64,000 nucleotides of DNA, from positions 69,744 to 133,743 of the forward strand of contig CADCKW010000002.1 in the NCBI GenBank assembly GCA_902802115.1, given 5' to 3'. A program made the position numbers and the translations under genes. Under the pieces are notes generated by a model, which was not told the DNA's origin, did no database searches, and was given only the letters and a program-made list of their open reading frames with translations. Origin of the DNA: an uncultured Pseudomonadota bacterium (GTDB taxonomy: Bacteria > Pseudomonadota > Alphaproteobacteria > Rs-D84). Shown in pieces: positions 29,205-47,420 of this stretch. Each line of letters begins with the position of its first letter. The first letter of the stretch is position 1.

Positions 29205-29849
29205 ATGTCTGAAACAATGAAACGTGTGTTGGTGTCGTTCGTAATGCTGGGCATCGTTTGTGTTGCCACGGTATTGGAACATTTTCATATTCCTGCGGTG
29301 CGGTGGTTGTCTGTATTGGTTGCATCTGGCATGGTTTATGAAATGGCAAATCGCCTGTTTAATACAGAACGCGAAAATATCGCGCAACATGGTTTATTGT
29401 TTTTCGTGTTCTTGGCATGGTTGGTTATGTTGATTGCGGCGGCATATTATGTTGGTGCAAATGCGCGCAATATGGTTTTATTGTTGGCTGTTATTTGTGC
29501 TGCTGATATTGGTGCATGGTTTTTTGGAAAAATGTTCGGTGGCGATAAAATGTGGGAACGAATTTCTGCACACAAAACATGGACTGGACAAATCGCAGGC
29601 ATCATTTGTGGCGCATTGGTATCGTTGGCTTTTGGACCGTTGGTTGTTGGAAATTATCAACCTGAATTATTATGGATTGGTATATCGGTTGCATTGTTAT
29701 CTCAATACGGTGATTTAACCGCCAGTTTTATAAAGCGCAATTTGGGCATCAAAGATTTCGGGACAATTTTACCTGGTCATGGCGGATTGCTGGATAGGTT
29801 TGATGGCTGGATTTATGTGTTGCCGATTGTGTGGTGGATTTTGGGTTAA
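29205..29849 (+). CDS. cdsA: phosphatidate cytidylyltransferase
   Basis: Polytopic, C-terminal signature GHGGLLDRFD. Confidence 0.85.
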   Translation: MSETMKRVLVSFVMLGIVCVATVLEHFHIPAVRWLSVLVASGMVYEMANRLFNTERENIAQHGLLFFVFLAWLVMLIAAAYYVGANARNMVLLLAVICAADIGAWFFGKMFGGDKMWERISAHKTWTGQIAGIICGALVSLAFGPLVVGNYQPELLWIGISVALLSQYGDLTASFIKRNLGIKDFGTILPGHGGLLDRFDGWIYVLPIVWWILG

Positions 29850-29885
29850 AATAAATTTGGATTTAACTGGGGAGGATTTATAAAA

Positions 29886-30944
29886 ATGCATATCGTGATG
29901 ACTGTTGTTGCGTTGTTGATTGTTTTAGGTGTCGTGGTCGTTATTCACGAATTAGGGCATTTTTTGGCGGCACGTTGGGCGGGTGTCCGCGTTGATAAAT
30001 TTTCTATTGGATTTGGACCTGCATTAATTAAATGGCATGACAAGCATGGAACCCAGTGGCAGTTGGCATGTTTGCCGTTGGGTGGTTATGTTTCTATATA
30101 CGGTCAAGAAGATATGTTCGACCGCAAAAAATACGATGATTTAAGCGATGAAAAAAAAGTTGGACATTACCTGTCGGTGGCGCGTTGGAAACAATTTATA
30201 ATCATTGGCGCGGGTGTATTTATGAACTTTATGTTGGCTTGGTTTATTTATTCGGCGGCATTTATGTTTCACCCACGCGAAATTCAATTACCGGTGGTTG
30301 GTCAGGTTATACAGCAAAGTGTTGCATTTAAAGCGGGTGTAAAACCGGGCGATGTTATTGTAAAAATTGATGGAAAAAAGGTTTCTAATTGGGGTGAAAT
30401 TATTTTGGCCAAAGAATTGGCGGCGCAACACGATGCAAATGTTGAACTGATGCGTGGCGAAAAATTTATTGATGTCACTTTGGCACCTGCGGAACGGTGG
30501 GGTTTGGTTGCAGACGGTTCCAAAACAGAATTACGCAAAAAAGGTTTTATTGACGGCATGTATTGGGGCGCACGTGAAACATACAACCAATCAAAAACTT
30601 TATTGACCGTATTAAAACAGATTATTACCGGCGAACGTTCATCTAAACAACTGGGGTCGTTCATCACAATTGCCCAGGTTTCTGGCCAGGCTTTATCCAT
30701 TGGATTTTGGGCGTTTTTATCAATTATCGCATTATTATCTGTTAATTTAGGTGTGGTGAATTTATTACCTTTGCCGGTGTTGGACGGTGGATTTTTGTTG
30801 ATATTGATAATTGAATTTATCACGCGTCGCCGTTTGCAAGGCAAAGCCATGGAATATGCTTTTGCGGTGGGTTGGATATTGATTATTGGTTTAATGTTGC
30901 TGACCATGTGGAACGATATAGCTAGGGTTTTTGGATTGAATTAA
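29886..30944 (+). CDS. rseP: RIP metalloprotease RseP (site-2 protease)
   Basis: HELGHF zinc motif in TM1, PDZ region, C-terminal LDGG motif. Confidence 0.9.
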   Translation: MHIVMTVVALLIVLGVVVVIHELGHFLAARWAGVRVDKFSIGFGPALIKWHDKHGTQWQLACLPLGGYVSIYGQEDMFDRKKYDDLSDEKKVGHYLSVARWKQFIIIGAGVFMNFMLAWFIYSAAFMFHPREIQLPVVGQVIQQSVAFKAGVKPGDVIVKIDGKKVSNWGEIILAKELAAQHDANVELMRGEKFIDVTLAPAERWGLVADGSKTELRKKGFIDGMYWGARETYNQSKTLLTVLKQIITGERSSKQLGSFITIAQVSGQALSIGFWAFLSIIALLSVNLGVVNLLPLPVLDGGFLLILIIEFITRRRLQGKAMEYAFAVGWILIIGLMLLTMWNDIARVFGLN

Positions 30945-30945
30945 A

Positions 30946-33213
30946 ATGAATAGAAAAAATATTATTTCTTTGATTGGGACAATGTGCGTTGTTGGCACAG
31001 CGGGTGCGGCAACGATTTCACGCATTGATGTTTCGGGAACAAAACGTATGGACGCGGAATCTGTGCGGATTTTGTCTGGGGTCAAGGTTGGCGATAACAT
31101 TGGGTCTGCAACGACAAATGAAATCGCAAAAAGATTACAAGACAGTGGTTATTTTTCCAGTATCAATGTCACAAGTGATGGCGGTGTAATTAAAATAAAA
31201 CTGACTGAATCACCTGTGGTGTCCCAGGTGACTGTCGAAGGTAATGACGAGGTTTCGACAGATGATTTAAAAAAAGAAATTAAATTGGCGGAACGCGCGG
31301 CATACGATGAAACGGTTATTGGTGCCGATGTGCAAAGGTTGCTGACTATATATCAACGCAAGGGATTTTTTGGAACAAAAATAAATCCAAAAAAAATCGA
31401 ATTGGATAACAACCGCGTCAATGTTGTATATGAAATTACCGAAGGTCACCCAACATATATTTCCAATATTGATTTTTCTGGTAATGAACATTTCAGCGAC
31501 AGGACTTTGCGTGGTGAAATATTGTCGCGCGAACATGCGTGGTGGCGTTTTATGACTCAATTTGATGTGTTTGACGAAGACAGAATTCAATACGATGCAC
31601 AAATGTTGCGCCAATTTTATCTGCGCAATGGTTATGTTGATGCAAATGTCGTAAATACGACTGGGAAATTTACAGAAACGCGCGAATATTATTCTGTTAA
31701 TTTTGAAATTAACGAAGGTGAAAAATATAAATTCGGCGAATTGAAAATTGATAATCCGTTCCCAGATGTGCCAGATGAAAAATTATACGATGTTATAAAA
31801 ATGGAAACAGGTGACACATATGATATAGACAAGGTTGATGCGACAATATCTGCGTTGCGTGGCGCGGTGGCGGACGCCGGATATGCGTTTATTACGGTGG
31901 AACCTGTCCCGGTCAAAGACGATAAAAAACGTACTGTGTCGTTGGAATTTAAAATTCAAAAAACCAATCGTATTTATTTAAATTCTATTAACATTTTGGG
32001 AAATGTGAGAACGTTTGACAGTGTGATTGAACAATCTTTGCCGATGCGTGCGGGCGACCCGTTTTCATTACAAACAATCGAAGAAGCACGTCAAAATTTA
32101 ATGCACACACGTTATTTCAAAGATGTGCAAATGGTGCCAACACGAATTGCCGATGCAAATATGATGAATCTGGACGTGCGTGTTGCCGAACAGCCCACAG
32201 GCGAATTGTCGGGTGGTGTTGGTTGGTCTAATATCAATGGATTTATGGTTGATGCGGGTATTACCGAAAATAATTTTATGGGACGCGGTCAAATTGTCCA
32301 AATCAAAGGCTCGCTGGCGCAATATCAAAAACAGGCCTTGTTCAGTTTTACCGAACCATATTTGTTTGGTCGCGCATTATCGGCGGGATTTGATGTCGCA
32401 TACACAATGTATGATTATCGGGGACTCACCGGATTTGATTACGACCGCGACTCGCTTAGTGTGTCGGGACGATTGGGTTGGAAATTAACAGACCATTGGT
32501 CACAAAGTATGCGTTTGTCTGCGGCATTTGATCAAAACACTGATCCGCAACAGGCCGCCGGCATGGTGCATGCGCGTTTATATTCGTTGGGAACAACACT
32601 GCGGTATTATAATTTGGATACGAATTTTGAACAAAACACTCATACCGGATTGGTTGGTAATTTTGGTGTGACATATACCGGTTTTGGTGGCACGACAACA
32701 TATATGCGTTATTCAGGTGATATGACCGCAATGGTTAAATTCTGGGACGACCGGTGGCAATTAAAAACTGCATTAGAAGGCGGATATATTGCCCCCATTG
32801 GCGACAGTTATGTTCCACGTGTGTATCGGTATTTCTTGGGTGGTGAATCATTGCGTGGATTTGATGTTGCGGGTGTTGGTCGTATCAGCAAGAATTCTTA
32901 TTCGTTGGGTGGATTATGGAAGGTTAATGGCACAACACAGTTGAATTTCCCTGTATTTATACCTGATGAATACCAGGTCAAAGGTTTTGTATTTACCGAT
33001 TATGGATACCTGGGCGACCCAGATGTGCCGGCGGGTCAAGAAAACGCGGCATATTTGAACGAGATTGGTTCAGGTTGGCGCACATCGGCGGGATTTGGTG
33101 TGTATTGGAATACCCCAATGGGTCCAATGAATTTCAGTTGGGGCTGGCCGTTGCGCATTGATAAAAACGATAAAGAACGCAGATTTTTATTATCATTTGA
33201 AACACAATTTTAA
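30946..33213 (+). CDS. bamA: outer membrane protein assembly factor BamA
   Basis: Signal peptide, POTRA repeats, C-terminal beta-barrel ending ...FSFETQF; conserved position after rseP. Confidence 0.9.
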   Translation: MNRKNIISLIGTMCVVGTAGAATISRIDVSGTKRMDAESVRILSGVKVGDNIGSATTNEIAKRLQDSGYFSSINVTSDGGVIKIKLTESPVVSQVTVEGNDEVSTDDLKKEIKLAERAAYDETVIGADVQRLLTIYQRKGFFGTKINPKKIELDNNRVNVVYEITEGHPTYISNIDFSGNEHFSDRTLRGEILSREHAWWRFMTQFDVFDEDRIQYDAQMLRQFYLRNGYVDANVVNTTGKFTETREYYSVNFEINEGEKYKFGELKIDNPFPDVPDEKLYDVIKMETGDTYDIDKVDATISALRGAVADAGYAFITVEPVPVKDDKKRTVSLEFKIQKTNRIYLNSINILGNVRTFDSVIEQSLPMRAGDPFSLQTIEEARQNLMHTRYFKDVQMVPTRIADANMMNLDVRVAEQPTGELSGGVGWSNINGFMVDAGITENNFMGRGQIVQIKGSLAQYQKQALFSFTEPYLFGRALSAGFDVAYTMYDYRGLTGFDYDRDSLSVSGRLGWKLTDHWSQSMRLSAAFDQNTDPQQAAGMVHARLYSLGTTLRYYNLDTNFEQNTHTGLVGNFGVTYTGFGGTTTYMRYSGDMTAMVKFWDDRWQLKTALEGGYIAPIGDSYVPRVYRYFLGGESLRGFDVAGVGRISKNSYSLGGLWKVNGTTQLNFPVFIPDEYQVKGFVFTDYGYLGDPDVPAGQENAAYLNEIGSGWRTSAGFGVYWNTPMGPMNFSWGWPLRIDKNDKERRFLLSFETQF

Positions 33214-33236
33214 TATAAATATTTATAACCCGCGGA

Positions 33237-33260
33237 ATTCGCGGGTTTTGTTTGATTATT
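33237..33260 (+). terminator. terminator after bamA
   Basis: AACCCGCGGAATTCGCGGGTTTTG. Confidence 0.6.
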
Positions 33261-33314
33261 TTTGTAATCATAAAAATTATTGCAATAAAACACAAAAATG
33301 TTTTATCATGTTTT

Positions 33315-33696
33315 ACAGAATATAACGGGAGTTATATTCGGGGCTGTCGAAAGCCTGGCTTACCCGGTGCAAAAAATTGTATCGTTATTCCGAATCGCTG
33401 GGATATTTTGTCCCATGAGTTTTTGATATAACATTTTCAGTTTTTTGCGCCGACATATATGAATATTTGTCGGCGTAATTTTTATGCGACAATTGTTTGT
33501 ATATAAAATCCAACTGATTTAAACCCTAAACCAATGTGTTGGTCAGGGTGCCGCATATACGAAAGATATGCGGAGTCACTTGGTATAGCTGATTTTCGAA
33601 CACCCCGACCGCTTCTCTCGTTAGCGGTATTTTTATTTTTTTGCATCGCAAAAAATAAAAATCACGCCACATACCAAAAACCAAAGGGGAGAACAA
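33315..33696 (+). promoter_or_regulatory. conserved leader (about 380 bp) of the variable secreted-protein family, copy A
   Basis: Aligns with the leaders of copies B (48326-48710, minus strand) and C (58902-59295). It begins ACAGAATA(C/T)AACGGGA.TT.T.TTCGGGG and ends with the AT-rich IR TTTTTATTTTTTTGC-ATC-GCAAAAAATAAAAA (about 33630-33662), 35 bp before the ATG. Confidence 0.6.
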
Positions 33697-34605
33697 ATGA
33701 AAAAGATATTATGCGCATTGTTGGGAATGTTGCTTGCCGGGACATCGTGGTCGGCCACCCTGCCCGCCGGTTATACACAACTTGAATATATTGAATCAAC
33801 AGGGGCACAGTATATTGATACAGGGATTTCTGGGTTTAACACTGGGGATTGGGAAATTTATGCCAAATGGATGACGACTGTTTCAACCCAACCGGCCAGT
33901 TATGGTTTCATTTTTGGTGTGTATACAGATGAATCGCACAATTCGTACAGGTTGATTTTTAATCAAACAAATTCTGGGAAGTATTTTATTAGCGCAAATT
34001 CAAGAGCTGGTGGTGGCAGTATAGCTGTTTCAGCAAGTACAAATGCGATTCATAACGTAGTGGTCAAAAATGGTTCTTTTGTATTAGATGGACAAAATTA
34101 TCAAGCACCTAATGCTGGAACAGCATTGCCGGCGGATTCTAAATTGGGAATATTTAGATGCGATGAAAATGGTTCATATGCGTCAAAAGGTGTCGCCAGA
34201 CTTTATTCTATGAGTGTGAAAAAAGATGGTGTTTTGATTGGTGATTTTGTTCCTGCAAAAAATTCGTCTGGCGTAATTGGTATGTATGATACGGTTGGTA
34301 ATCGTTTTTATACAAATCAGGGTACTGGGGAATTTATTGCCGGTCCAGAGGTTTCTATCCGCATTGCGACGACGGCGTATAACAGCGCGCGGTTTAGCCC
34401 AGTGGTGACTGAATTGAACGACACGATTGCAACGATACGAAATGTCGTGACGAACACTATTAACCAAACCAAAGCCATTGCGGATTTGCAGGCAACCAAA
34501 CAAACCCGCCCAGACGAGAACTGCCCCGCCGGTAAAAAATGCCTGCTGGTTGAAGACGATGCCGGCGTGCCGCATTGGTATGAGATTATCGAAAACGCAG
34601 ATTGA
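33697..34605 (+). CDS. variable secreted protein family, copy A (type-I N-terminus, conserved C-terminal module)
   Basis: Signal peptide MKKILCALLGMLLAGTSWSA; N-terminal TLPAGYTQLEYIESTGAQYIDTG shared with 51490 and 52307; C-terminal 90 aa (IRIATTAYNSARFSPVVTELNDTIATIRNVVTNTINQTKAIADLQATKQTRPDENCPAGKKCLLVEDDAGVPHWYEIIENAD) over 90% identical to copies B and C. Confidence 0.7.
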   Translation: MKKILCALLGMLLAGTSWSATLPAGYTQLEYIESTGAQYIDTGISGFNTGDWEIYAKWMTTVSTQPASYGFIFGVYTDESHNSYRLIFNQTNSGKYFISANSRAGGGSIAVSASTNAIHNVVVKNGSFVLDGQNYQAPNAGTALPADSKLGIFRCDENGSYASKGVARLYSMSVKKDGVLIGDFVPAKNSSGVIGMYDTVGNRFYTNQGTGEFIAGPEVSIRIATTAYNSARFSPVVTELNDTIATIRNVVTNTINQTKAIADLQATKQTRPDENCPAGKKCLLVEDDAGVPHWYEIIENAD

Positions 34606-34684
34606 CAGTTTTGATTTTGTTTGGTCAAGGCCCTGAATTCAACTCCCATTAAAAAAAGTAAGGCTGCCAGACAGAGTCAAGAAG

Positions 34685-34710
34685 CACCTGATGAAAATCA
34701 GGTGTTTTTT
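34685..34710 (+). terminator. family 3' hairpin terminator (CACCTGATGAAAATCAGGTG plus T-run)
   Basis: Perfect 8-bp stem plus T-run; an identical hairpin recurs at 34838-34865 and on the minus strand at 47421-47450. Confidence 0.6.
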
Positions 34711-34837
34711 GTTGGCCCCGAACAACTCGCTCGGTTCGCTGTCGCTTTCCTGCGCGGCACTCGTGACAAATCGCCTGACGGCTCTTTTACTCGTAGTCCC
34801 ATTAAAAAACAAGAGGCTTTTGTTTCTAAATCAAGAA

Positions 34838-34865
34838 ACACCTGATGAAAATCAGGTGTTTTTAT
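34838..34865 (+). terminator. second copy of the family 3' hairpin terminator
   Basis: ACACCTGATGAAAATCAGGTGTTTTT, preceded by a 45-bp stretch identical to the copy-B 3'UTR. Confidence 0.5.
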
Positions 34866-34937
34866 GTAAAAATAAATTTCCATTTATAAAAAATCCCCGG
34901 CAATGCCGGGGGATTATCGAGTATTGTTTTATATGCT

Positions 34938-35195
34938 TTATTTTATAACGGCGGATTTGATTAATGTGACATCTTCTTTGATGCCGTCTATTTTTAATTG
35001 CAATTGTCCCAGTCCGGTTTCCAATATTGTTGTGCGATTTTCCAATGCGGTAATGCGACTGTCGGCGCGTTCCAATTCCGCAACCGATGAATCTTGGCGT
35101 GCAACCCAATATACCGCACCAAATGCAAATGCCAGTAAAAACCAACTGTTTCGCAATATTTCCAATATATTCATAAAATCTGTTTTTTTTGGCAT
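34938..35195 (-). CDS. small membrane-anchored coiled-coil protein (phage-associated, function unknown)
   Basis: One TM helix then a heptad region; ends the portal-side phage-like block. Confidence 0.35.
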   Translation of the reverse strand: MPKKTDFMNILEILRNSWFLLAFAFGAVYWVARQDSSVAELERADSRITALENRTTILETGLGQLQLKIDGIKEDVTLIKSAVIK

Positions 35196-35198
35196 GAT

Positions 35199-35399
35199 TT
35201 AACTCCCTGCTTTGCCACGCGATATCATTTGTTCGATTTGTCGCACAAATGCCCGGTTCGATTCAGCCCAACGCAATTCGTTGTCTGTCGCGTTTGGTCC
35301 CAATGTGCGTTCCAATGTAATTTTACGCATGTGTTCCAATACCGCACGACCCGCAGGTGTCCCAAATGCACGCGCATATTGTTTTTCTATTTCTGTCAT
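35199..35399 (-). CDS. small phage-associated protein downstream of portal
   Basis: 66 aa, translationally coupled to the portal gene; its position matches the small conserved gene after the portal in GTA/HK97-type clusters. Confidence 0.4.
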   Translation of the reverse strand: MTEIEKQYARAFGTPAGRAVLEHMRKITLERTLGPNATDNELRWAESNRAFVRQIEQMISRGKAGS

Positions 35400-35409
35400 T
35401 TTTTATCCT

Positions 35410-36633
35410 TTATATTCCCATGTCACGCGTCGCAATCGCAATTGGTGCCAGATATTTTAATTCCGCATCACTGTGTAATGATATCGGTTCTATAACACCA
35501 CGACGCGATAAAATCTGTAATCCGCGTTCGCATAATGGACGTATGAATTCATGCAATACGCGACCATATGTCGCACCCAAAATACGCATCATGTCTGCAT
35601 TGCGTGCCAAAACCTCGGTCGCGGTCATTTCGCGTTCCGCCAACAAACTTAATCTGTCCGCCAATAATGTATGACGAATACGGTCGCGCAAATCGTTTAA
35701 TATCAATTGCGACACATCAAAATCGGCGCCACTGTGTAATGGTGTTAAACCAGAACTGCCCACCGCTTTTGGTATTATCGCCCCAGGTGTCAGATTGATG
35801 TTTTGCAAATTTATAACACCATCATCGTCGGCCTGCCATATACCACTGACGGCGATGGTCGCATTTTTCAAAACCAATTCTACAACTTTGTTCGCCGTTT
35901 TGATGTCTGGCAATGCACGCAAAATTGGACTGCGACCGTATAATTCGCCACTTTGCACAGACCAACGAAAGATTAAATACGGATTCGTTTCAAATGTACC
36001 TGTGGCGACGATATTGTTTTCAATGTCGCCACCAACGTCCAACCATGCAACAAATTCCTTATCAATCAATGATTGAATCATACGTATCGGGGTGTCTGGA
36101 TTTTTTTCAAATTTATTGCGCAAATTCGATGGCGCGTTCCATGTTGGATATCGCAATAAAACATCACCAAATGTTATTGTCGTGGTGTGAAAAATCGCGT
36201 TAGGTAAAATGGCTAAATCTGTGACGGGAATCGCAGTAAATGAAAACGCAGATGCCGCCCCAATTGGATTTTCCGCCATAAACATACATGCAGTACCATA
36301 TATACATAAATCCATATATGCCTGATGCACAGTCGTATAAAAATTTGAATCATTTAAATTTGCACGCAACGCAGTTGTTGCAATTTCTGGGTCTGGGGAC
36401 ATATCACTTTCACGCACCAAATTTATCCATAATGATTCAGGTGGTGTTAAAAGTGTGTATATCGATGCCGCTAAATTATCAACTGCATCGGCAGCGGTGC
36501 CATCAAACAATGTCGCCGTTTCATTATCTGCAATTGGAACAGTATAACGGCGCGCTTCGTCCCAACGGTGCAACCATGGTTCGCGCAATGTTATCGCTTT
36601 GTTATACATTTTGGTTAAGTTTTGAATATTCAT
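35410..36633 (-). CDS. phage portal protein (HK97/GTA-type)
   Basis: 407 aa, a typical size for GTA/HK97-type portals (inference); immediately downstream of the terminase nuclease-domain fragment in the GTA order terminase-portal. Confidence 0.55.
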   Translation of the reverse strand: MNIQNLTKMYNKAITLREPWLHRWDEARRYTVPIADNETATLFDGTAADAVDNLAASIYTLLTPPESLWINLVRESDMSPDPEIATTALRANLNDSNFYTTVHQAYMDLCIYGTACMFMAENPIGAASAFSFTAIPVTDLAILPNAIFHTTTITFGDVLLRYPTWNAPSNLRNKFEKNPDTPIRMIQSLIDKEFVAWLDVGGDIENNIVATGTFETNPYLIFRWSVQSGELYGRSPILRALPDIKTANKVVELVLKNATIAVSGIWQADDDGVINLQNINLTPGAIIPKAVGSSGLTPLHSGADFDVSQLILNDLRDRIRHTLLADRLSLLAEREMTATEVLARNADMMRILGATYGRVLHEFIRPLCERGLQILSRRGVIEPISLHSDAELKYLAPIAIATRDMGI

Positions 36634-36653
36634 TTTTATTCCTTTTTTTATTT

Positions 36654-37700
36654 TTATACTTTGAAATTTGTGTTCGCATTATATGTGCGACATGTTTGTC
36701 CCAATGGGCGTATCGGTGTCGGTGTTATATTTATCGCCCCAGATACCGCGTCCAAACCATCATCATGATAAGAACTGCCAATTGGTGACCAACCTAACAT
36801 TTCAGCCATAAATGGTGTTCGCGTTATTCGTGTGTGCGCAAACATACGCGCCGCCCCCAGTAATGGTTCAAATGTGTTTAAAATTCTTGTTTCTTTTTTT
36901 GTATTATTTGTGATTTTTTGGACATATATTCCGCCACCACGTGATGCAATTTTGTCACCTAATATTTCTGGCAACGCATTTCCCAGCCCATTTGTTTCAA
37001 CCGTCACACGATGCATGTTATATCGTTCCAAGAAATTCAATACTAAATCGCATTGGTATGTCAAAGGCTGGGGATGGTCAGGTGGTGTCACCATATATTG
37101 TATGTCGTGCAAAAATATCCTGTGTGTTTTATCGTCACGAAAAATCAGTGCAATAACACTGGAATCTGTTTTTTTGTGTCCCAATGACGGGTCCCAATAT
37201 ACAGATGCACCTGTGATTTTTTCTGTGCCGATTTGACCTGTTAAATTATTAAATTCTGTGTCATATATTTGTATCATGCCAGGGTCCAAACGGACACGTT
37301 CCAATGGCATGAATTCCAGCATCATTTGCGCCATAAAATGATGTTCGCCCACAGATTTCCTTAATTCATTTATTTTTTCTGGGGTAAAAACATCTGGCCA
37401 GGCAGAGTTTCCGGCACTGTCCAAAATCGGCAGAAAAAATTTTTGAAATCCTGATAAAAAAGGCGTTGAAAATTGAAATTTTTTATTTACTATAACAGAC
37501 ATGGACTTTACCCCTAAGACTTTACCGACAAATCTCGAAGCCGAACAGGCTGTGTTGGCGGCTGTGTTGATGAATAATCGCGCATTGGAACGCGTTTCCG
37601 ATTTTTTAAAACCTGAACATTTTTCACACCCAGCGCACCAAGAAATGTATCGTTTGGCATTGCGTAAGTTTTCCATAGCCGAAGAATTCGATATCATCAC
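36654..37700 (-). pseudogene. terminase large subunit, C-terminal nuclease-domain fragment
   Basis: RNase-H-like nuclease signature (VYWDPSLGHKKTDSSVIALIF...), no Walker ATPase region; the ORF's 5' end overlaps the dnaB start by about 200 nt. Confidence 0.55.
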
Positions 37701-39075
37701 AATTAAAAATTACCTGCAACAACAAGGCATTTTGGATTCTGTCGGCGGTATCGATTATTTGACCGAGTTGTCCCGCGCCGGCGCAACAGTTGTTAATGTC
37801 GAACAATACGGACGCATCGTTTATGAAAATGCTATGCGACGCCAGTTAATTGAACTGGGGCAATCCATTATTGACGATGCATATATCGAAGATTTGGATA
37901 AACCTGTGGCACGTCAATTAGAGGTCGCAGAACAAAAGTTGTTCGAAATGGCGTCCAGTGGTGTCGCAGAACACGAACCAACAACGATTGGAAATGCTTT
38001 GCAATCCGCATTGGAAGAAGCACAAATCGCGTACCAGGCAGATGGAACATTGTCTGGTTTGACAACAGGATTAACCGAATTGGACAAGTCTATTAGTGGT
38101 CTGCACCATTCCGATTTAATTATTATTGCGGGACGTCCCGCCATGGGTAAAACAACACTGGCAATGAATATCGCATTCAATGCGGCAAATGCAATATTAA
38201 CAGGACGCGCAAATTCACATTACAAAGGTGCGGTTGCATTTTTCTCGCTTGAAATGTCTGCGCCCCAGTTGGCGACACGTGTTTTGTCATCACAAACAAA
38301 AATTCCGGCGACATCTATGCGTGAAGGTTCGCTGACCGATGAAGAATTTTTGAAAATGACCCAATATTCCAAGGCTATTTCACAAACACCGTTGGTTATC
38401 GATGATACCGCCGGTATGTCTGTGCCAATGATTCGAACACGCGCACGCAGATTGGCACGCAAATACGGTGGAATCGCGTTGATTGTAATTGACTATTTAC
38501 AGTTGATGATGTCGCCTGGCGGAAAACGCAGCGAAAATCGCGTGCAAGAATTGTCTGAAATTACCCGCGGATTAAAAATGCTGGCCAAAGAATTAGATGT
38601 GCCGGTTATCGCCCTGTCCCAGTTGTCACGCAGTGTCGAAATGCGCGATGATAAACGACCACAATTGGCAGACTTGCGTGAATCTGGTTCTATTGAACAG
38701 GACGCCGATATTGTTATGTTCACATATCGTGAAGAATACTATTTGGATAATCGTGACCCGTCACAAAGAATTTCAACAACAACATCACAAAATAGTGTCG
38801 AAACATGGCAAAAACGTCTGGAACGCGCACGCGGCAAGGCAGATATTATCATCGGCAAAAACCGTCATGGCCGTCCAGAAACTGTGCATTTGGCTTTCTT
38901 GGGCGATTATTGTTTGTTCGATAATTTGGACGAAATGGCGGCGCGGACAATGGACGCACCTTTGCCGGGTGATTTTGGAACAAACACACAAAATAATGTT
39001 GATTCTGGGCCGGCACCAACAGATGATAATGCGGGTGTTGATGTTTCGGCAATTCCTGATGATATTGCACTGTAA
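37501..39075 (+). CDS. dnaB: replicative DNA helicase DnaB (with about 50 aa C-terminal extension)
   Basis: N-terminal primase-interaction region LPTNLEAEQAVLAAVLMNN, Walker A GRPAMGKTT, typical DnaB motifs. Confidence 0.85.
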   Translation: MDFTPKTLPTNLEAEQAVLAAVLMNNRALERVSDFLKPEHFSHPAHQEMYRLALRKFSIAEEFDIITIKNYLQQQGILDSVGGIDYLTELSRAGATVVNVEQYGRIVYENAMRRQLIELGQSIIDDAYIEDLDKPVARQLEVAEQKLFEMASSGVAEHEPTTIGNALQSALEEAQIAYQADGTLSGLTTGLTELDKSISGLHHSDLIIIAGRPAMGKTTLAMNIAFNAANAILTGRANSHYKGAVAFFSLEMSAPQLATRVLSSQTKIPATSMREGSLTDEEFLKMTQYSKAISQTPLVIDDTAGMSVPMIRTRARRLARKYGGIALIVIDYLQLMMSPGGKRSENRVQELSEITRGLKMLAKELDVPVIALSQLSRSVEMRDDKRPQLADLRESGSIEQDADIVMFTYREEYYLDNRDPSQRISTTTSQNSVETWQKRLERARGKADIIIGKNRHGRPETVHLAFLGDYCLFDNLDEMAARTMDAPLPGDFGTNTQNNVDSGPAPTDDNAGVDVSAIPDDIAL

Positions 39076-39153
39076 TTTTTAATGCAGATTTTACTTGCCA
39101 AATATTTAAAAATTGACTAGACTTTTGTCAAGTATTTAACAGGAGTACCAATC

Positions 39154-40161
39154 ATGGCCCAAGAAGAAATCATTTTTCCTAATAATATTAGAACTATCCG
39201 TTTGAATAACGGTATGAAGATGACGGAATTGGCACGCAGAACAGGATTAAGTCTGTCGGCGGTGTCCAAAATCGAAAAAGGCGTGCGTCGTTTAAACCAA
39301 AAACAGTTGCTGAATATATGCAATATTTTGGGTTGCAAACTCTCTGATATTTTCATCAAAGAATCCGATGCAGTTGCAGGTAAATGGCAAACAGAAATCA
39401 AACGCCGTTTAAATGATAATGAACATGGTGGTTTAAAGGTGTTTGGTTCGGGTCTGCGTAAAATCCGTCAAATCAAAGGAAAAACTATTGCCCAGGCGGC
39501 ACGCGATGCAGGTATGACTTTGTCTGTGTATCACAAAATCGAAATCGGCCAACGCGAAATTTATAAAAACGAAGTTGAACCTTTGGCTAAATCTTTTGCG
39601 ATGTCGGCAAATGAAATGTTTGATAAAATCGCAAATTTATATAAATCTGGCGAATTGACCAAACAAATCAACAAGGTCAAAGAACGCGTTAAATCTGTAT
39701 TGATTCCTGACAATCCTGTATCTGGGATTGATATGCACGACGGTTTGTATGGTGCAAAATTGTATGACAGTGCGCGTCGTAAATTGGTTCCGGTGTTTGG
39801 CTCACCTGCGGGCAAATCAATTTCTTTCAAGAAAAACGACAAAATTATGATTGTCGCACCAGCTTCATTGGAAGGTCGCAAATCTATTTATGCGGTTATA
39901 CCAAATTCAAAACGCAGTGGTGGATTTATTCCGGAAAAATCATATGTGTTCGTTGATGCGGCACAACCTGCAAATGTTGGCGATTTGGCATTGTGTATGA
40001 ATGCGGATTTTTCAAAGTTAAATCCTGATGATGTTGTTGATGCACATATTGCGGTGGTTCATAGTGATTCCAAGGGCAAAATGTATGGCGCATTGGTTGA
40101 TCCCCAAGAAAAAATCAGCGCAACAACTATGCACAAAGTCGTTTTGATTTTGACCGAATAA
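39154..40161 (+). CDS. XRE-family transcriptional regulator with two helix-turn-helix domains
   Basis: Two Cro/CI-type HTH repeats (IRTIRLNNGMKMTELARRTGLSLSAVSKIEKG and LRKIRQIKGKTIAQAARDAGMTLSVYHKIEIG) plus a C-terminal domain. Confidence 0.6.
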   Translation: MAQEEIIFPNNIRTIRLNNGMKMTELARRTGLSLSAVSKIEKGVRRLNQKQLLNICNILGCKLSDIFIKESDAVAGKWQTEIKRRLNDNEHGGLKVFGSGLRKIRQIKGKTIAQAARDAGMTLSVYHKIEIGQREIYKNEVEPLAKSFAMSANEMFDKIANLYKSGELTKQINKVKERVKSVLIPDNPVSGIDMHDGLYGAKLYDSARRKLVPVFGSPAGKSISFKKNDKIMIVAPASLEGRKSIYAVIPNSKRSGGFIPEKSYVFVDAAQPANVGDLALCMNADFSKLNPDDVVDAHIAVVHSDSKGKMYGALVDPQEKISATTMHKVVLILTE

Positions 40162-40181
40162 TTTTTATACGGAGAGAGAAT

Positions 40182-40841
40182 ATGAAACCAAAAGCAAATC
40201 TGGTCGCACAAAGATTGGTTAATCTGTATCGCCAAGAGCATGTTATATTGGGTGGCTGGGCCGCGTTAAATCCGGTATTTGTCCAAGAAGCCACAGACGA
40301 TGTTTTGGACGAAATGGCAGATTTGCCGACTGGTAAATTATTGGTTCAACATATTAAAAATCTGCGCAGTGGTAAAACACCAATGGATTCAATCGAACGC
40401 GATTTGTTGCCATACGGTGGTTTAATGGGCGAATCTGGTGTATCAACCCCAATGTCAAACGAACAATGGCACGAATTAAGTGATGCATTGAATAATTTTG
40501 TTCCAAACCAACAAGGTCTTGAAAATCTACAAAAATTAGATGTTGTAAAAAAATTCGGTGACGAGTGGTTGGTTGGAATTAAAAACATGCTGTCTGGGGA
40601 CACAGAATTGGCTGAAAAATGGAAGGTTGTTATGCAAACTTGGCGCGCATATCATTTGTGGGATATGGCAACCCAGATAATCAACCAACCATTAACAGAA
40701 CGTATGCGCGCACAAATCCAAGCCGATATGCCAGAATACGAAACTTTCTTGCCAATGTTTGCAGAACCCGGCAATCAGTTGTTGGCAAAATTGCGTTCTT
40801 TTATGAGTGATAAAAAACGCCCAAGTTCAACCGATAATTAA
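40182..40841 (+). CDS. hypothetical protein
   Basis: ORF track only; RBS GGAGAGAG upstream. Confidence 0.4.
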   Translation: MKPKANLVAQRLVNLYRQEHVILGGWAALNPVFVQEATDDVLDEMADLPTGKLLVQHIKNLRSGKTPMDSIERDLLPYGGLMGESGVSTPMSNEQWHELSDALNNFVPNQQGLENLQKLDVVKKFGDEWLVGIKNMLSGDTELAEKWKVVMQTWRAYHLWDMATQIINQPLTERMRAQIQADMPEYETFLPMFAEPGNQLLAKLRSFMSDKKRPSSTDN

Positions 40842-40843
40842 CA

Positions 40844-41455
40844 TTATTCGCCCTGCTCTGTATTTTCTGTGCGATATATTGTATCGGTGGTGTGTGGTGT
40901 GCCGATATATATTATTGTGCCATGGGGCGACAAAATAAAATCTAATTCACGCAGTCTTTCACGCAGTGCCTCGCGTTTTTGTGGGGTATTGCATGTATTT
41001 GGAACCTCTACGTCATCACATATTATTAAATCTGCACGCATACCTGTTATATTACCATGGATTCCTTGGCATACAACAGACGGTTCGCGAATACCAATTG
41101 GACGATTTATTGTTATTTTATCTGCCGACCATTCTTTTTTCGATTTTGGAATTAAATCTGTGCAAAACGGGTGGTTTTCCAATATATTTTTTATATGTGC
41201 CACCATGCGTGATGCCAATGCGGTGTGTGCAGATAAAACCAAAATTCTGGTTTCTGGGTGTAAATATAAAACACATGCCGCAAAAATTCCAACAACTGTT
41301 GATTTGCCAGAATGACGAAATGCCATCAGCAAACCTTTACGATTATTAGATTCCAATACACCAAATAAAAATTTTAACATTTCGTAATGATGATGCGGTG
41401 TTTGGTATCCTAAAATTTTGTTCCATTGGTCTGCAAATTGTAATACAGGATTCAT
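40844..41455 (-). pseudogene. terminase large subunit, N-terminal ATPase-domain fragment
   Basis: Walker A AFRHSGKSTV, Walker B ADLIICDDVE; ends where the plus-strand insert begins; same strand and order as the nuclease fragment at 36654-37700. Confidence 0.6.
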
Positions 41456-41460
41456 CGATT

Positions 41461-41808
41461 TTATCCAACAATTTTATTAACACGCGACAACCAAGATTTT
41501 AATAAATTTGGTTTTTTGGCGGATGTGGTGGCTATTTTTGCCAAATTAGAATTCTTTTTTTCATTATATGGTTCGGCAATTTCATCACGCAATCTATTTA
41601 ATACCGCGCCAGATGTGGTGCTGGACGCACTGACGCCGGATGCGCCATATTTTGCGCGTTGTGTTGCCAAGGCTTTTTTTATTAAATTTGTTTTTGCGCG
41701 TTCGTCTTTGGCAATTTGTTGTAAAATTTCTTGCCGTTTATTGTTTGATGATTTTTTGTTTTTTTGATAATTCAAAACATCTGTGACATCTGATACAAGT
41801 TGTCCCAT
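41461..41808 (-). CDS. small phage protein upstream of terminase (possible small terminase subunit)
   Basis: Basic, helical; start taken at ATG 41808 with AAGGAG RBS. Confidence 0.3.
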   Translation of the reverse strand: MGQLVSDVTDVLNYQKNKKSSNNKRQEILQQIAKDERAKTNLIKKALATQRAKYGASGVSASSTTSGAVLNRLRDEIAEPYNEKKNSNLAKIATTSAKKPNLLKSWLSRVNKIVG

Positions 41809-41824
41809 TTTAAACTCCTTTGGA

Positions 41825-43537
41825 TTAAATTTCATATTGTCCGTAAATTGTGACAGATAACACCGTAATTGGTTCAGGTTCATTACCACTGATTTGCCAT
41901 GGTGATATCGATACATCAATTTGCGAACCTAAAAAATTCATAGATATATCGCCAGAAAAACCACTGGACGACGCATCATAAATTTCGTTTGGTAATTCCA
42001 GGCGCATATTGTTTATAAATGCCCCTTTGGTTTCCACCAGCCGTAAATTGACTTTGCGTAATCTTAAATGTTTTGGTCTGTGTCCTGAAAAAGACAAAGG
42101 TAATCCAGATGCGCAAAATTCTATATCATGCGTTCCAGAATCTGTCAATGCGGTGCCAGAAAACTTTGCTAATTTATATGTGCCTGTGTTTTCCAATACA
42201 ACATACGTTGTGTTTCCTATGACCACAACAGATTTAAATTTTGCATACGAACTGTATCGCGACCATGCAGAAATACCCAAACCAACATTTTGATTTAATA
42301 CCGCCATGGTGCCATCTGCATTTACCAAATATAATTGTTTTAACTCTTTGTTATACGTAATATCCACAGGCGAATTTAACATATGTTTTGAAAACAAACA
42401 TAAATCATCAGCATTATACCTTTCGCCAAGTGTATCCAATGACAATTTGCGAATATCACGCAGTGTGCTGGATACAAACACTGTATCACCTTCGATTTTT
42501 TGTGGTGGTAAATTACATATGGTTGGGCTGCCAACGGTGGTGTGTTGAACTATATTCATACTGGACGGTGTGACCGGTTGATTTGCGATTGCCCATTCAC
42601 CCGCAGATGTTAAAACCTGTAATTTATCACTGCTGATTAAACTGCAAACTTGCTGGCGTTCTTTGGATAACAAAGTTGTTGAAATTGCCTCGTCATCTAA
42701 GCCAGAGCCCGCATCAAAATTATGATAATCACCAACATGCGACATCCATATTCCCCCAGGTGTTGCGCGTGTTCCACCAAAAACTAATCTGTCTTGGTGA
42801 AATGTGATTGCAATTGGCCAACCATGTTTATCATCAAATGCACTTTCCAACCAATCTGTCACAGGGGCAGCCGGCAAAGAATATTCAATTGTGCTGGTGG
42901 CATAAACGACTGTGGGACTTATATATTCTGTAATTTGCCAATTTTGGTTATTAAAACGCAATATTGTGCCAATATTATCGGGTGTCCAATAATTTTTAGA
43001 TGCAGTTAATATTGCAGATTGTACGCCATGAATTCCGGCTGTGACAGATATGTTGATACCATACATGTCATCATATTTCATAAATGGCATACGCGGATAT
43101 ACACCTGTGGTGTCGTAAAAATTAAATTTATCCAGAGTAAAATCATTTCCTGATTTTTTAAATACATACGGACAATAATCAGGTTGAACAAAAACCAACG
43201 AATCACTGAAACCGGCGCATTGTAAATGTGTAAGTGCAGATTCTGGCCATGGGGAACTTATTATTTTCAACAATGTATCATTTGAATATACGGATACTGT
43301 ATTATTTGAAAACACCAAAATATAATGTTCTGTATTTGAAATATCATATGAAAAAATACGCGAAAAACCTGGCAATATGGCGACATCAACCAAACCGGCG
43401 CGACGCGTTAATCCCCCACCAGACAATACGTCCATATTTTCCAAACGTGACAGACCATAAATATCTTTGTTCAAATAAAATTCTGGCGCAATTTCACCAT
43501 GCGCAAATGAATTTTGCGTGTGTATAAATTCTGTCAT
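41825..43537 (-). CDS. phage tail protein (possibly T7 gp12-like tail tubular protein B)
   Basis: 570 aa, beta-rich; segment ITFHQDRLVFGGT...NF resembles a recalled conserved gp12 motif (inference). Confidence 0.35.
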   Translation of the reverse strand: MTEFIHTQNSFAHGEIAPEFYLNKDIYGLSRLENMDVLSGGGLTRRAGLVDVAILPGFSRIFSYDISNTEHYILVFSNNTVSVYSNDTLLKIISSPWPESALTHLQCAGFSDSLVFVQPDYCPYVFKKSGNDFTLDKFNFYDTTGVYPRMPFMKYDDMYGINISVTAGIHGVQSAILTASKNYWTPDNIGTILRFNNQNWQITEYISPTVVYATSTIEYSLPAAPVTDWLESAFDDKHGWPIAITFHQDRLVFGGTRATPGGIWMSHVGDYHNFDAGSGLDDEAISTTLLSKERQQVCSLISSDKLQVLTSAGEWAIANQPVTPSSMNIVQHTTVGSPTICNLPPQKIEGDTVFVSSTLRDIRKLSLDTLGERYNADDLCLFSKHMLNSPVDITYNKELKQLYLVNADGTMAVLNQNVGLGISAWSRYSSYAKFKSVVVIGNTTYVVLENTGTYKLAKFSGTALTDSGTHDIEFCASGLPLSFSGHRPKHLRLRKVNLRLVETKGAFINNMRLELPNEIYDASSSGFSGDISMNFLGSQIDVSISPWQISGNEPEPITVLSVTIYGQYEI

Positions 43538-43559
43538 TTCATTTCCTTTTTTTAAATAT

Positions 43560-44078
43560 TTAAAATCGTGCGTCTATCAAAGAAAATTGCCTGACCCCGG
43601 TATTAATATCTGTGGTGGAATCAATAAATTTCGCGTTTTGATATTCTGCGTCGTATAAGTTAATTAATATCCGCAACATCTGTTGATTGCCGGTCAAAGG
43701 CACACAAAATTCTATTGCCAATTTTGTTGCCGCCAATGATACAAAATAACTGGGGAAAAATTCTGGTTCAACACGTTGCAAAGCCAATATTTTTACACTT
43801 TGTGATTTCGATATAATTTTATTACCAATAATATGTCCATCACAACGCAATATACGCAAAACATTTGATGGTATTATAAATTCATCATTTTCATTTTTTT
43901 CAATTTCAAAATTTTTTGATGCAAAATGCCAAGGGTGTGTTGATATCAACGAATCAATCGTTGTGTCGTATAATGTTCGCGCCAATTGCGCAGATGCGGT
44001 ATCTGCATTTATCGATGTTAATGGTTGTTCGCCTAATTTTAATAATGCCATAGAACATAAATCTTGTTTAGTGACCAT
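43560..44078 (-). CDS. phage structural protein (possibly gp11-like tail adaptor)
   Basis: 172 aa between the capsid and the large tail protein; by position only. Confidence 0.3.
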   Translation of the reverse strand: MVTKQDLCSMALLKLGEQPLTSINADTASAQLARTLYDTTIDSLISTHPWHFASKNFEIEKNENDEFIIPSNVLRILRCDGHIIGNKIISKSQSVKILALQRVEPEFFPSYFVSLAATKLAIEFCVPLTGNQQMLRILINLYDAEYQNAKFIDSTTDINTGVRQFSLIDARF

Positions 44079-44159
44079 ATTGAAATCCTTTATAAAAAAA
44101 TAAAAAAAAGGGGCGCAAACAATCGCGCCCCAAATGGTTGGATTATATATTATTTATTT

Positions 44160-44390
44160 TTAAGCCAACGCACCAACAGATACCGCCGATGCCGAAACAG
44201 TAATTTTCTTGATTGCTGTGCTGTCCGATGCATTGATAATGATAATATCGCCAGTATTCATCAATGTAATAACATTATTGAAATAACCACTGGTGCTAAT
44301 CGCCGTCATTGTTTCGTCTGCGACATAGTGCCACAAAGTGAAACCATTTGCATACGCAATCACAGATAATTTTTTATTTTGAAATGCCAT
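44160..44390 (-). CDS. small phage structural protein
   Basis: 76 aa ORF between capsid and tail genes. Confidence 0.25.
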   Translation of the reverse strand: MAFQNKKLSVIAYANGFTLWHYVADETMTAISTSGYFNNVITLMNTGDIIIINASDSTAIKKITVSASAVSVGALA

Positions 44391-44428
44391 CTGTTTTTCC
44401 TTTTGGTTGTTTTGTTAAAGCGTTAAAT

Positions 44429-45253: not shown

Positions 45254-45395
45254 ATTTATTCCTTTTTGTTAAAAATTAAATTCATGTGCAAAAATGCACG
45301 ACAATAAAAAAAGATTTTGTTTTTTTGATTATGCAAATGAAATATTTGCGTCATATAACAAAAATGCGGGGTCAAACGGTGATTATCCTGCAACA

Positions 45396-45430
45396 GTTTT
45401 AGTTAGACTTTTTTTCATCTAACTAAAATT
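45396..45430. promoter_or_regulatory. 11-bp perfect inverted repeat in the capsid-gene upstream region
   Basis: TTTTAGTTAGA-N10-TCTAACTAAAA between the histone-like gene terminator and the capsid start. Confidence 0.35.
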
Positions 45431-45439
45431 ATTACAAAA

Positions 45440-45466
45440 AAACCGCAACGAATTGCGGTTTTTTTA
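45440..45466. terminator. bidirectional terminator hairpin
   Basis: AAAAAAACCGCAACGAATTGCGGTTTTTTT. Confidence 0.55.
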
Positions 45467-45485
45467 AATCACTTTAAAAGAAAAA

Positions 45486-45842: not shown

Positions 45843-45969
45843 TCTTCTCTCCTTTTTATGTTTTGGTTAGAACAAAACTTTTTTTGTTCTTGATTCTATT
45901 TTAACTTAAACAAAAAAAATAGTAAAGAAGAATTTGATTTTTTATGAAATGTTTTTTCATTTTTTTATT

Positions 45970-46822: not shown

Positions 46823-46835
46823 TTTTTATATTCCG

Positions 46836-47246: not shown

Positions 47247-47420
47247 TGTGGTATCCTTTGGTTAAAATAAAAAAGGCCACGAAAAATCGTGACCAAAAAA
47301 TATGAGTAAAAAAAATCACGCCAAATGTGACGCGTATAATTTCTGCTCTTGATGGTTTGTATTATATCACAAATCGAGTTGCAAGTCAAGAATATTTCAA
47401 AATACATCGGTGCATTATAA

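Follow-up and report, generated by a model that had tools for sequence, protein, structure and literature searches.

A long structured leader RNA, predicted to alternate between two folds, precedes a variable family of secreted lectin-like proteins in uncultured Alphaproteobacteria

Introduction

The order Rs-D84 groups uncultured bacteria with genomes below about 1 Mb, found in the guts of farm animals (PMC12306168). This article is concerned with one 64,000-nucleotide (nt) stretch of DNA from an alphaproteobacterium of this order (contig CADCKW010000002.1, positions 69,744 to 133,743), called here the window, and with the non-coding leader of about 380 nt that stands before three of its genes, A, B and C. 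The leaders lie at 33315–33696 (A), 58902–59295 (B) and, as the reverse complement, 48326–48710 (C). As a first reading of the DNA had held (the original prediction), they align over their full length, with a mean column identity of 74% when flanks of 100 nt are included, and both the start quoted for them (ACAGAATA.AACGGGA.TTGT.TTCGGGGCC) and the end (CACCCCGACCGCTTC...GCGGTATTTTTATTTTT) are found. A profile built from the three recovers each copy with nhmmer at E-values of 1e-116 to 1e-128. The leader belongs to a previously uncatalogued class of RNA, which is probably a new on/off switch for a variable family of surface proteins.

The family genes and their promoters

The genes that follow the three leaders are:

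33697–34605, plus strand, family gene A, 302 amino acids (aa), with a signal peptide, a ConA/LamG-like lectin head, a long helix and a conserved C-terminal domain
33686–33699, plus strand, Shine-Dalgarno sequence (GGGGAG, 33686–33691) and start codon (ATG, 33697) of gene A
59296–60192, plus strand, family gene B, 298 aa
47519–48325, minus strand, family gene C, 268 aa

All three proteins carry signal peptides and have very different N-terminal parts, while their C-terminal 85 aa or so are nearly identical. Neither Pfam nor PHROGs gave a match for the family proteins, and a protein search returned 612 relatives, all named hypothetical proteins, from uncultured gut and rumen Alphaproteobacteria; Candidatus Enterousia is among the related genomes. 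The AlphaFold model of protein A (mean predicted local distance difference test score, or pLDDT, of 77) consists of a ConA/LamG-type jelly-roll at about residues 22–215, a helix at 230–266 and a small C-terminal beta domain, with fold matches to laminin-G domains, CBM40 sialic-acid-binding domains and uncharacterised phage proteins. Together with the signal peptides, this fold places the leader before a family of secreted proteins with a variable head, and the model suggests that they are probably carbohydrate-binding. A phage tail-fibre identity was considered and rejected: the proteins carry signal peptides and are conserved in their C-terminal part, the leader occurs on two IMG/VR contigs only, and L083, which was the one examined, represents the same chromosomal locus by a phage-like island.

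The leaders were compared over a set of loci fetched by protein-based scans, 39 of them from species-representative genomes (six species of metagenome-assembled genomes, MAGs) and 43 from metagenomes. In the window, the promoters are placed as follows:

33280–33309, plus strand, promoter of copy A: −35 box TTGCAA (33280–33285), 18-nt spacer, −10 box TATCAT (33304–33309), a match to the consensus
58867–58896, plus strand, promoter of copy B: TTGCAA (58867–58872) and TACCAT (58891–58896)
48719–48748, minus strand, promoter of copy C: TTGCAA (48743–48748) and TAATAT (48719–48724)

The pattern TTGnnn-N17/18-TAnnnT, of the sigma-70 type, is present in 38 of 40 distinct upstream regions, with the consensus TTGCAA and TATAAT or TATACT; the spacer is 18 nt in 36 upstream regions, and the −10 box ends 7–8 nt before the first G of the first leader hairpin, P1. 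Transcription of copy A is predicted to start at about 33316–33318. The leader start first given, 33315, is therefore essentially the predicted start of transcription, although conservation begins about 35 nt earlier, at the promoter; likewise the shared promoter that had been suggested is real and conserved, but lies just upstream of the leader as then delimited. No further promoter-like site was found between the leader promoter and the ATG, including the stretch from the second terminator-like element (T2, below) to the ATG. With a promoter at its 5′ end and no second one behind it, the leader is predicted to be the 5′ untranslated part of the mRNA of its gene.

Local hairpins and terminator-like elements

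Two covariance models were built, R1 for the 5′ module of the leader and R2 for its 3′ module. The elements of the three leaders are:

33318–33339, plus strand, hairpin P1 of leader A, GAAUAUAAC/GUUAUAUUC; 94.8% of cells are paired, and compensatory changes affect three pairs
33341–33356, plus strand, hairpin P2 of leader A, whose loop box UCGAAAG pairs with box2 (33593–33599)
33365–33384, plus strand, hairpin P3 of leader A, formed by seg1 (33365–33372) and seg2 (33377–33384); 99.7% of cells paired, many of them G-U
33447–33485, plus strand, T1 of leader A, first terminator-like element: hairpin 33447–33475, then AAUUUUUAU; five covarying pairs
33502–33648, plus strand, 3′ module of leader A (R2, 116 bits): P5 33524–33548, P6 33551–33573, box2 33593–33599, CACCCCGA 33601–33608
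33608–33642, plus strand, T2 of leader A, second terminator-like element: ACCGC/GCGGU hairpin 33608–33628, then the U-tract AUUUUUAUUUUUUU
58901–59078, plus strand, 5′ module of leader B (R1, 141 bits): P1 58905–58926, P2 58928–58944, seg1/seg2 58955–58973, seg3 59034–59041, T1 59036–59064
59103–59261, plus strand, 3′ module of leader B: P6 59147–59170, CACCCCGA 59198–59205, T2 59205–59227, AU hairpin 59228–59261
48538–48715, minus strand, 5′ module of leader C (R1, 148 bits): P1 48690–48711, P2 48672–48688, seg1 48654–48661, seg2 48643–48650, seg3 48571–48578, T1 48551–48576
48362–48523, minus strand, 3′ module of leader C: P6 48451–48473, T2 48395–48415, AU hairpin 48362–48394

The local helices were tested on a plain MAFFT alignment of 47 5′ modules. 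For P1, P3 and T1, 93.3% of cells are paired, against 21–41% when the partner columns are slid, and 66 cells are changed on both sides, against 19 in shuffles. The arms of P1, for example, occur as GAAUACA/UGUAUUC, GAAAUCA/UGAUUUC, GAAUAUA/UAUAUUC and GAAUUCA/UGGAUUC, and its loop, AACGGGAG, pairs with the loop of T2. P6 has five covarying pairs, and compensatory changes were found in P1, P3, T1, P6 and T2. G-U pairs are common, one P3 pair (columns 74/89) being G-U in 34 of 42 sequences; since such pairs would be C-A mismatches on the opposite strand, they indicate an RNA of the sense strand.

Pairing amounts to 86.6% for T1 and 96.7% for T2. The 10 nt behind the T1 stem include at least 5 U in 33 of 41 variants, and the 9 nt behind the T2 stem include at least 7 U in each of 39 distinct variants. 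Judged by their sequences, both look like intrinsic terminators, with short stems, lying inside the leader. The middle of leader A diverges, as had been noticed, its P4 domain lacking the CGAUUCG hairpin of leaders B and C. A helix P7 (AUCA/UGAU) was dropped for want of support. A leader peptide read from the ATG of CAATGAT was also rejected: this ATG is present in only 30 of 49 variants, the frames it opens are split 16/10/4, disagree over the conserved blocks and run for 2–112 codons, and there is no Shine-Dalgarno sequence.

Competing long-range pairings

The minimum free energy (MFE) structure of all three full leaders is a rod and not an array of hairpins, and it contains a helix between seg1 and a further segment, seg3, as well as long-range helices. 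The sense strand of leader A reaches −132.4 kcal/mol (z −8.6), and its centroid agrees with the rod-like MFE structure; the antisense strand has a z-score of −5.2 and an ill-defined centroid. Covariation, G-U pairs, the z-score of the sense strand and a promoter exactly at the 5′ end of the leader strongly support one of the functions first suggested, a long structured 5′ untranslated region (UTR) or small RNA (sRNA). Two strands of leader A matter for its alternative pairings:

33445–33452, plus strand, seg3, alternative partner of seg1 (anti-T1 helix), overlapping the 5′ arm of T1
33327–33344, plus strand, 5′ element, GGGAGTTATATTCGGGGC, 18 nt, with complementarity both to the T2 region and to a stem-loop behind the gene, in its loop

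As seg1 is the 5′ arm of P3 and seg3 the 5′ arm of T1, the seg1:seg3 helix excludes both hairpins. It is 99.1% paired, with GC/AU compensatory changes at two pairs.

The second alternative joins the two ends of the leader. The box in the P2 loop and box2, which stands just 5′ of ACACCCC about 270 nt away, form a perfect helix of 7–9 base pairs (bp) in 34 of 34 distinct leaders, with a mean of 8.44 bp against 5.98 bp for permuted partners (0/1000 as good). There are 14 distinct variants of this sequence pair, including UUCGAAAAG/UUUUUCGAA, CUAGAAAAG/UUUUUCUAG, UUCAAAAG/UUUUUGAA, UUAGCAGG/UUUGCUAA, UAGUAAG/UUUACUA, UCACAAG/UUUGUGA and UGAAGAG/UUCUUCA, and even a matched change of length (UCGAAAG/UUUUCGA versus UCGAAAAAG/UUUUUUCGA). 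The helix is extended by the pairings UCGGGG:CCCCGA and P1 loop:T2 loop. For the 5′ element against the T2 region, cognate pairing reaches −20.1 kcal/mol, compared with −17.7 for permuted partners (standard deviation 0.39; 0/500) and −14.2 for shuffled ones; the P1 loop:T2 loop pairing alone is clearly better than with shuffled loops, whereas comparison of cognate with non-cognate partners gave only 37/500. In the rod, the T2 hairpin has its 5′ arm caught inside the long-range helices or between them. The idea that the 5′ and 3′ blocks might be separable modules is contradicted by these results, as the blocks co-evolve and base-pair across some 270 nt. As predicted from its sequences, the leader has two mutually exclusive, co-evolving folds, one with both terminators formed and the other with both disrupted, which is the architecture of an attenuator or of a riboswitch expression platform.

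Beyond T2 lies the AT-rich inverted repeat that had first drawn attention to the leader:

33629–33662, plus strand, AU hairpin (AT-rich inverted repeat) of copy A, in which the U-tract of T2 pairs with a downstream A-tract

Its counterparts in copies B and C are at 59228–59261 and 48362–48394, and in copy A its first and last bases stand 68 and 35 nt 5′ of the ATG at 33697, just where they had been placed. The hairpin is formed in 31 of 49 distinct leaders, with compensatory changes, and its arms differ by subfamily while remaining complementary (UAUUUUUUGC/GCAAAAAAUA, UUGUGUUUU/AAACACAA, UUGUGAAAA/UUUCACAA). A sequence that varies between copies with its complementarity kept argues for an RNA hairpin and against the protein operator that had been among the candidates; the repeat is, moreover, about 310 nt downstream of the predicted start and is made of a terminator U-tract and an A-tract. 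As it can form only once the polymerase has passed T2, the AU hairpin belongs to the read-through RNA, where it is possibly a processing or stabilising site.

The stem-loop behind the gene

The 18-nt 5′ element recurs as its reverse complement just 3′ of the stop codons of the family genes (34630–34647, 60211–60228 and 47484–47501), and has six matches in the window against 0.14 expected by chance. The structures concerned are:

34611–34680, plus strand, stem-loop of unit A (SL-A), with a stem of 15–19 bp and a loop of about 29 nt (34633–34661) complementary to the 5′ element
34685–34710, plus strand, intrinsic terminator of unit A: CACCTGAT GAAA ATCAGGTG, then a T-run
60197–60289, plus strand, SL-B (60197–60260, loop element 60211–60228) and terminator (60264–60289) of unit B
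47415–47512, minus strand, SL-C (loop element 47484–47501) and terminator of unit C

Across the loci, the loop element stands after the gene or, in some species, after T2, and in 41 of 61 contexts it lies in a loop of 26–30 nt closed by a covarying stem of 15–21 bp. The duplex between the 5′ end of the leader and the loop amounts to −27 to −34 kcal/mol in all nine combinations within the window, against −11 to −14 for shuffled loops and −13 to −17 for the local P1 and P2 fold. No cognate-specific matching was seen among these nine combinations, which are about equally strong. The loop (CCCCGAAUUCAACUCCCAUU) resembles the T2 region (CCCCGACCGCUUCUCUCGUU) because both are complementary to the same 5′ strand, and we infer that the stem-loop can act as a competitor of the anti-T2 helix, either in cis or across the transcripts of paralogs. 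An integron attC-like reading of the stem-loop was rejected, the units being dispersed and having their own promoters, the stems containing G-U pairs, and no integrase being seen.

Two nearby stretches may be mentioned here. After the terminator of gene A, positions 34711–34869 form a second, gene-less module resembling a 3′ UTR. It includes a degenerate loop element (GGCCCCGAACAACTC...), and 73 nt of it match the end of the gene C 3′ UTR at 97% identity (inverted repeat I4 with 47415–47487); the module is probably the relic of an earlier gene replacement. Just 3′ of unit B, in A+T-rich surroundings, positions 60300–60450 are G+C-rich with runs of CCCC and GGGG (cccctccggcggaggggggaacc...), and a similar stretch occurs in contig L032; this may be a small repeat element.

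Exchange of gene bodies between strains

In contigs from closely related strains, the flanks of all three loci are 97–99% identical to the window, but the gene body between them is another one:

Locus A, contig L061: left flank 29692–33797, right flank 34903–38454; gene body of 431 aa instead of 302
Locus A, contig L009: left flank through 33656, right flank from 34903; gene body differs
Locus C, contig L059: left flank 51422–48310, right flank 47406–44268; gene body of 410 aa instead of 268
Locus C, contigs L045 and L083: left flank through 48285, right flank from 47414; gene body differs
Locus B, contig L066: left flank through 59233, right flank from 61117; a B-like open reading frame (ORF; 93% identical) extended to 486 aa, with 60190–61117 replaced

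The left breakpoints coincide with the leader end or fall inside the signal peptide, and the right ones coincide with the end of the 3′ UTR. From these positions, the conserved ends would also serve as homology arms for the exchange of gene bodies. The proposal of a site for cassette exchange holds in this respect, gene bodies being swapped between related strains with left breakpoints that fit homologous arms; on the other hand, neither a site-specific site nor a recombinase nor an inverted copy of the leader was seen. In all 54 cases the leader is oriented in the same way with respect to its gene and has its own promoter, and there is no recombinase among the roughly two dozen window ORFs scanned. 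Site-specific inversion was rejected, the only reverse-orientation matches being weak, degenerate ones on the minus strand of contig L036. These last (1568–1824; 26 and 37 bits with R1 and R2) lie downstream of a family gene on the strand opposite to it, have no gene following them, and are a decayed orphan leader or a recombination relic.

Distribution of the leader

The covariance models find exactly three leader copies in the window and more than 50 in related genomes and metagenomes. With nhmmer and the covariance models, the fetched loci gave 54 strong matches to R1 and 52–53 to R2, always together, always on the sense strand and always directly 5′ of a family gene; they come from the six MAG species and from rumen and gut metagenomes, all of the order Rs-D84. 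Where at least 1.3 kb of upstream sequence is available, the leader precedes 53 of 66 family genes. From the end of its conserved part to the ATG there are 41–73 nt in about half of the variants and 117–477 nt in the others, the longer distances being due to inserted modules. In four contigs (L043, L058, L009 and L066) with about 290–310 nt between T2 and ATG, an extra conserved hairpin, CGCGUAAAGGGCAGAGCCCGAAUACGCG, is found directly 3′ of the AU hairpin.

Rfam 15, run on the whole window at the gathering threshold, gave three tRNAs only, and leaders A and B searched at E up to 10 gave chance-level matches, the best at 21–24 bits against gathering scores of 53–144. The Rfam search first advised for the leader therefore matched no family.

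Family members of other kinds were also seen. Leaderless genes (window 51212–51490; contigs L006, L007, L013 and L069) have in common a conserved upstream region in which the palindrome AAAAAACCTAGGTTTTTT occurs twice, at a distance of about 110 nt, its second copy directly adjoining TGTATAAT; a UTR of about 70 nt follows. This region looks like an operator-controlled promoter. At 51364–52885 of the window are two tandem, partly degenerate family copies, the first with a lectin-type head and a decayed C-terminus, the second with a head only, in the neighbourhood of a VirB8-like gene (53221–53916) and, farther away, a VirB11/T2SSE-like gene (61738–62715). The ORF listed as 51364–52365 probably has its true start at an inner ATG (MSVKRAFF...).

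A model for the leader and its alternatives

The leader is best read as a bistable, cis-acting attenuator RNA, the conserved leader and the 3′ end of the gene doubling as homology arms for cassette exchange; a probability of about 0.6 is given to this reading. Found in silico are a leader promoter, terminator-like hairpins with U-tracts before the gene, and a conserved alternative that excludes the terminators. Each unit would be a single transcript consisting of promoter, leader of about 380 nt, adhesin-like gene, 3′ stem-loop and terminator. In fold I, the leader would form the local hairpins P1, P2, P3, P4, T1, P5, P6 and T2, and transcription would halt before the gene at T1 and T2. Fold II would be a closed rod, in which seg1:seg3 destroys T1 while the first 45 nt or so (P1 loop, UCGGGG and P2-loop box) pair with about 50 nt ending in the 5′ arm and loop of T2, thereby destroying it as well; RNA polymerase would then read through into the gene, and the AU hairpin would form in the read-through RNA. 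A trigger is supposed to shift the balance between these folds, which would decide on termination. The loop of the stem-loop behind the gene, mimicking the T2 region, might act as a decoy that captures the 5′ element of the leader, in cis or on the transcripts of paralogs, so that nascent leaders terminate. At the level of DNA, the leader with the signal peptide on one side, and the C-terminus with the 3′ UTR on the other, would act as homology arms through which gene bodies are exchanged among members of the family.

Several points weigh against this reading. Where transcription starts, that it terminates at T1 and T2, and that it reads through are all predicted from sequence. About 20% of T1 variants have no U-tract, and T2 has a short stem (5–6 bp, mean −8.4 kcal/mol) with a long loop and is not called by a consensus terminator scan. 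Three conserved complements, GGGGUG:CACCCC, Pa (CAAUGAU:AUCAUUG) and outer P5, show little or no covariation. The leader sequences are related, so that the permutation tests overstate significance, and alignments made with covariance models are biased towards the modelled structure. No sensor was identified: Rfam gave no known aptamer, and the candidate leader ORF is not conserved. Thirteen family genes have no leader, several of them having a different upstream region instead. Finally, since pairing of leader and stem-loop is equally good for non-cognate copies, cis and trans action are indistinguishable. A bolder extension, in which cross-talk by RNA alone lets the 3′ stem-loop of each adhesin mRNA force the leaders of paralogs to terminate, limiting or excluding other members of the family, is tentative and rather unlikely.

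Less likely still is that the leader represents one or two stand-alone genes for trans-acting sRNAs, about 160 nt long if they end at T1 and about 320 nt long if they end at T2, with read-through as a secondary matter. A strong promoter followed by terminator-like hairpins is what such genes would show, and the 18-nt 5′ element shows complementarity to the loops of all the stem-loops in the family, cognate or not, at about −30 kcal/mol. The post-gene stem-loops of the family mRNAs could then be targets, as proposed for the Brt RNAs of Bartonella, another alphaproteobacterium in which multi-copy leader RNAs precede multi-copy genes (PMC5387305). However, the lack of any promoter-like site between T2 and the ATG means that the gene needs read-through, and covarying anti-T1 and anti-T2 helices make sense only with conditional termination. 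A dual role of the leader, in cis and in trans, is possible.

It is improbable that the similarity of the leaders stems from concerted evolution alone, the leader being, with the C-terminus and 3′ UTR, a DNA homology arm for gene conversion or cassette exchange, and its RNA structure incidental. The different gene bodies between 97–99% identical flanks at all three loci, the breakpoints themselves (left 33656, 33797, 48310, 48285 and 59233; right 34903 and 47406–47414) and the mosaic conservation, with leader and C-terminus kept while the middle of the gene is unalignable, all accord with it. Homogenisation, however, preserves sequence and not complementarity, whereas the helices change across species by compensatory substitutions and even matched changes of length; the G-U pairs are strand-specific, and the sense strand folds far better than the antisense. 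Recombination is thus very likely a real role of the leader, added to that of the RNA rather than replacing it.

Very improbable as an alternative is a processive antitermination RNA like put or EAR, which would bind RNA polymerase and modify it so that it ignores T1, T2 and later terminators. Systems of this type control long surface or exopolysaccharide operons, and the leader does place structured hairpins at the very 5′ end of the transcript, followed by terminators. Even at E up to 10, however, no Rfam family matched, EAR included; the covarying helices compete directly with the terminator arms, pointing to a structural switch, and the unit is a single short gene for which processivity is unneeded. 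Least probable of all is that the palindromes (AT-rich inverted repeat, P1 and the 18-nt flanking elements) are DNA sites for a repressor, or for a site-specific recombinase that would invert or swap the unit and bring about phase variation as in the vsp/vsa systems of Mycoplasma: the 18-nt element does stand inverted at both ends of the unit, its six matches far exceeding chance, P1 resembles arms of 8–9 bp around a spacer of 4–6 bp, and gene bodies are exchanged between strains, but the arms differ between copies while remaining complementary, G-U pairs included, the 54 leaders share one orientation and have their own promoters, the scanned ORFs hold no recombinase, and the right-hand element lies inside an RNA-like stem-loop with a covarying stem.

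Other features of the window

Between the convergent family genes A and C, positions 34903–47406 hold a phage-like island. On the minus strand it encodes a T7-type portal (35410–36633), a fragment of a terminase large subunit (36654–37700), a tail protein (41825–43537) and a major head protein (44429–45253), and it also has a DnaB-like helicase and a helix-turn-helix regulator. The island is 98–99% identical in L061, L059, L045 and L083 and 93% identical in L009, and it is also covered by one IMG/VR contig. A resident cryptic prophage is one possibility for its nature, a particle-forming element another. Within its ORF 45486–45842 (minus strand), at least 16 tandem copies of a 15-nt unit (45492–45821) would encode a pentapeptide repeat protein. 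Two direct repeats, 24935–24970/26841–26876 (36 nt, 97% identical, 1.9 kb apart) and 21200–21388/21739–21927 (189 nt, 82% identical, 539 nt apart), are unrelated to the leader family.

Significance and comparison with known systems

Although their genomes measure only about 0.9 Mb (PMC12306168), Rs-D84 and Enterousia-like bacteria reserve many loci for a hypervariable family of secreted lectin-like proteins, with a structured RNA of about 380 nt before each. If this RNA is a bistable attenuator, it represents a large uncatalogued class of regulatory RNA, and the unusually clear covariation of both competing folds makes it a good model of long-range co-transcriptional switching. Should the 3′ stem-loop be a decoy, a gene family would regulate itself by contacts between mRNAs alone; cross-talk, if true, would be a new route to expressing surface proteins one at a time or at a capped dosage, combined with cassette exchange through the same sequences. 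The loci are hot spots of surface-protein replacement, which bears on variation in adhesion and on evasion of phage or host by dependent gut bacteria.

Like terminator/antiterminator leaders such as trp-type attenuators and the T-box, the leader has terminator-like hairpins, each opposed by an exclusive, covarying alternative helix. Unlike these, it has no known aptamer, T-box features or leader peptide, and it carries two terminators in series. Its anti-T2 helix bridges about 270 nt and involves the very 5′ end, it is matched by a decoy-like stem-loop in the 3′ UTR, and it is multi-copy, with one leader for each variable member of the family.

In Bartonella, nine similar structured Brt RNAs of about 200 nt each stand immediately 5′ of a paralogous trp gene, and both a riboswitch-like role in cis and an sRNA role in trans have been hypothesised for them (PMC5387305). 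The likeness, that of a multi-copy structured RNA immediately 5′ of each paralog in an alphaproteobacterium, is one of arrangement. The Bartonella genes encode helix-turn-helix regulators, whereas those studied here encode secreted ConA/LamG-like proteins; the leader is about twice as long, and no 3′ UTR partner has been described for Brt.

Such a partner exists in the icaR mRNA of Staphylococcus aureus, where a 3′ UTR motif complementary to the 5′ UTR of the same mRNA pairs with the Shine-Dalgarno sequence and blocks translation (PMC3868564). The stem-loops described here likewise contain a 3′ UTR motif complementary to the 5′ UTR of their own mRNA. Their target is instead nt 10–30 or so of the transcript (33327–33344), about 340 nt 5′ of the Shine-Dalgarno sequence (33686–33691), and it coincides with the antiterminator strand; all paralogs, moreover, have the motif in common.

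At the level of the genes, the closest parallels are the vsp/vsa families of Mycoplasma and the msp2/p44 family of Anaplasma, which are variable surface-protein families with conserved 5′ regions in bacteria with reduced genomes. They resemble the present family in their conserved 5′ non-coding region, signal peptide and 3′ end, their hypervariable middle and their cassette exchange. Here, unlike there, no single expression site, invertible promoter or adjacent recombinase is seen; each copy has its own promoter and structured leader, and the exchange looks like homologous replacement between strains.

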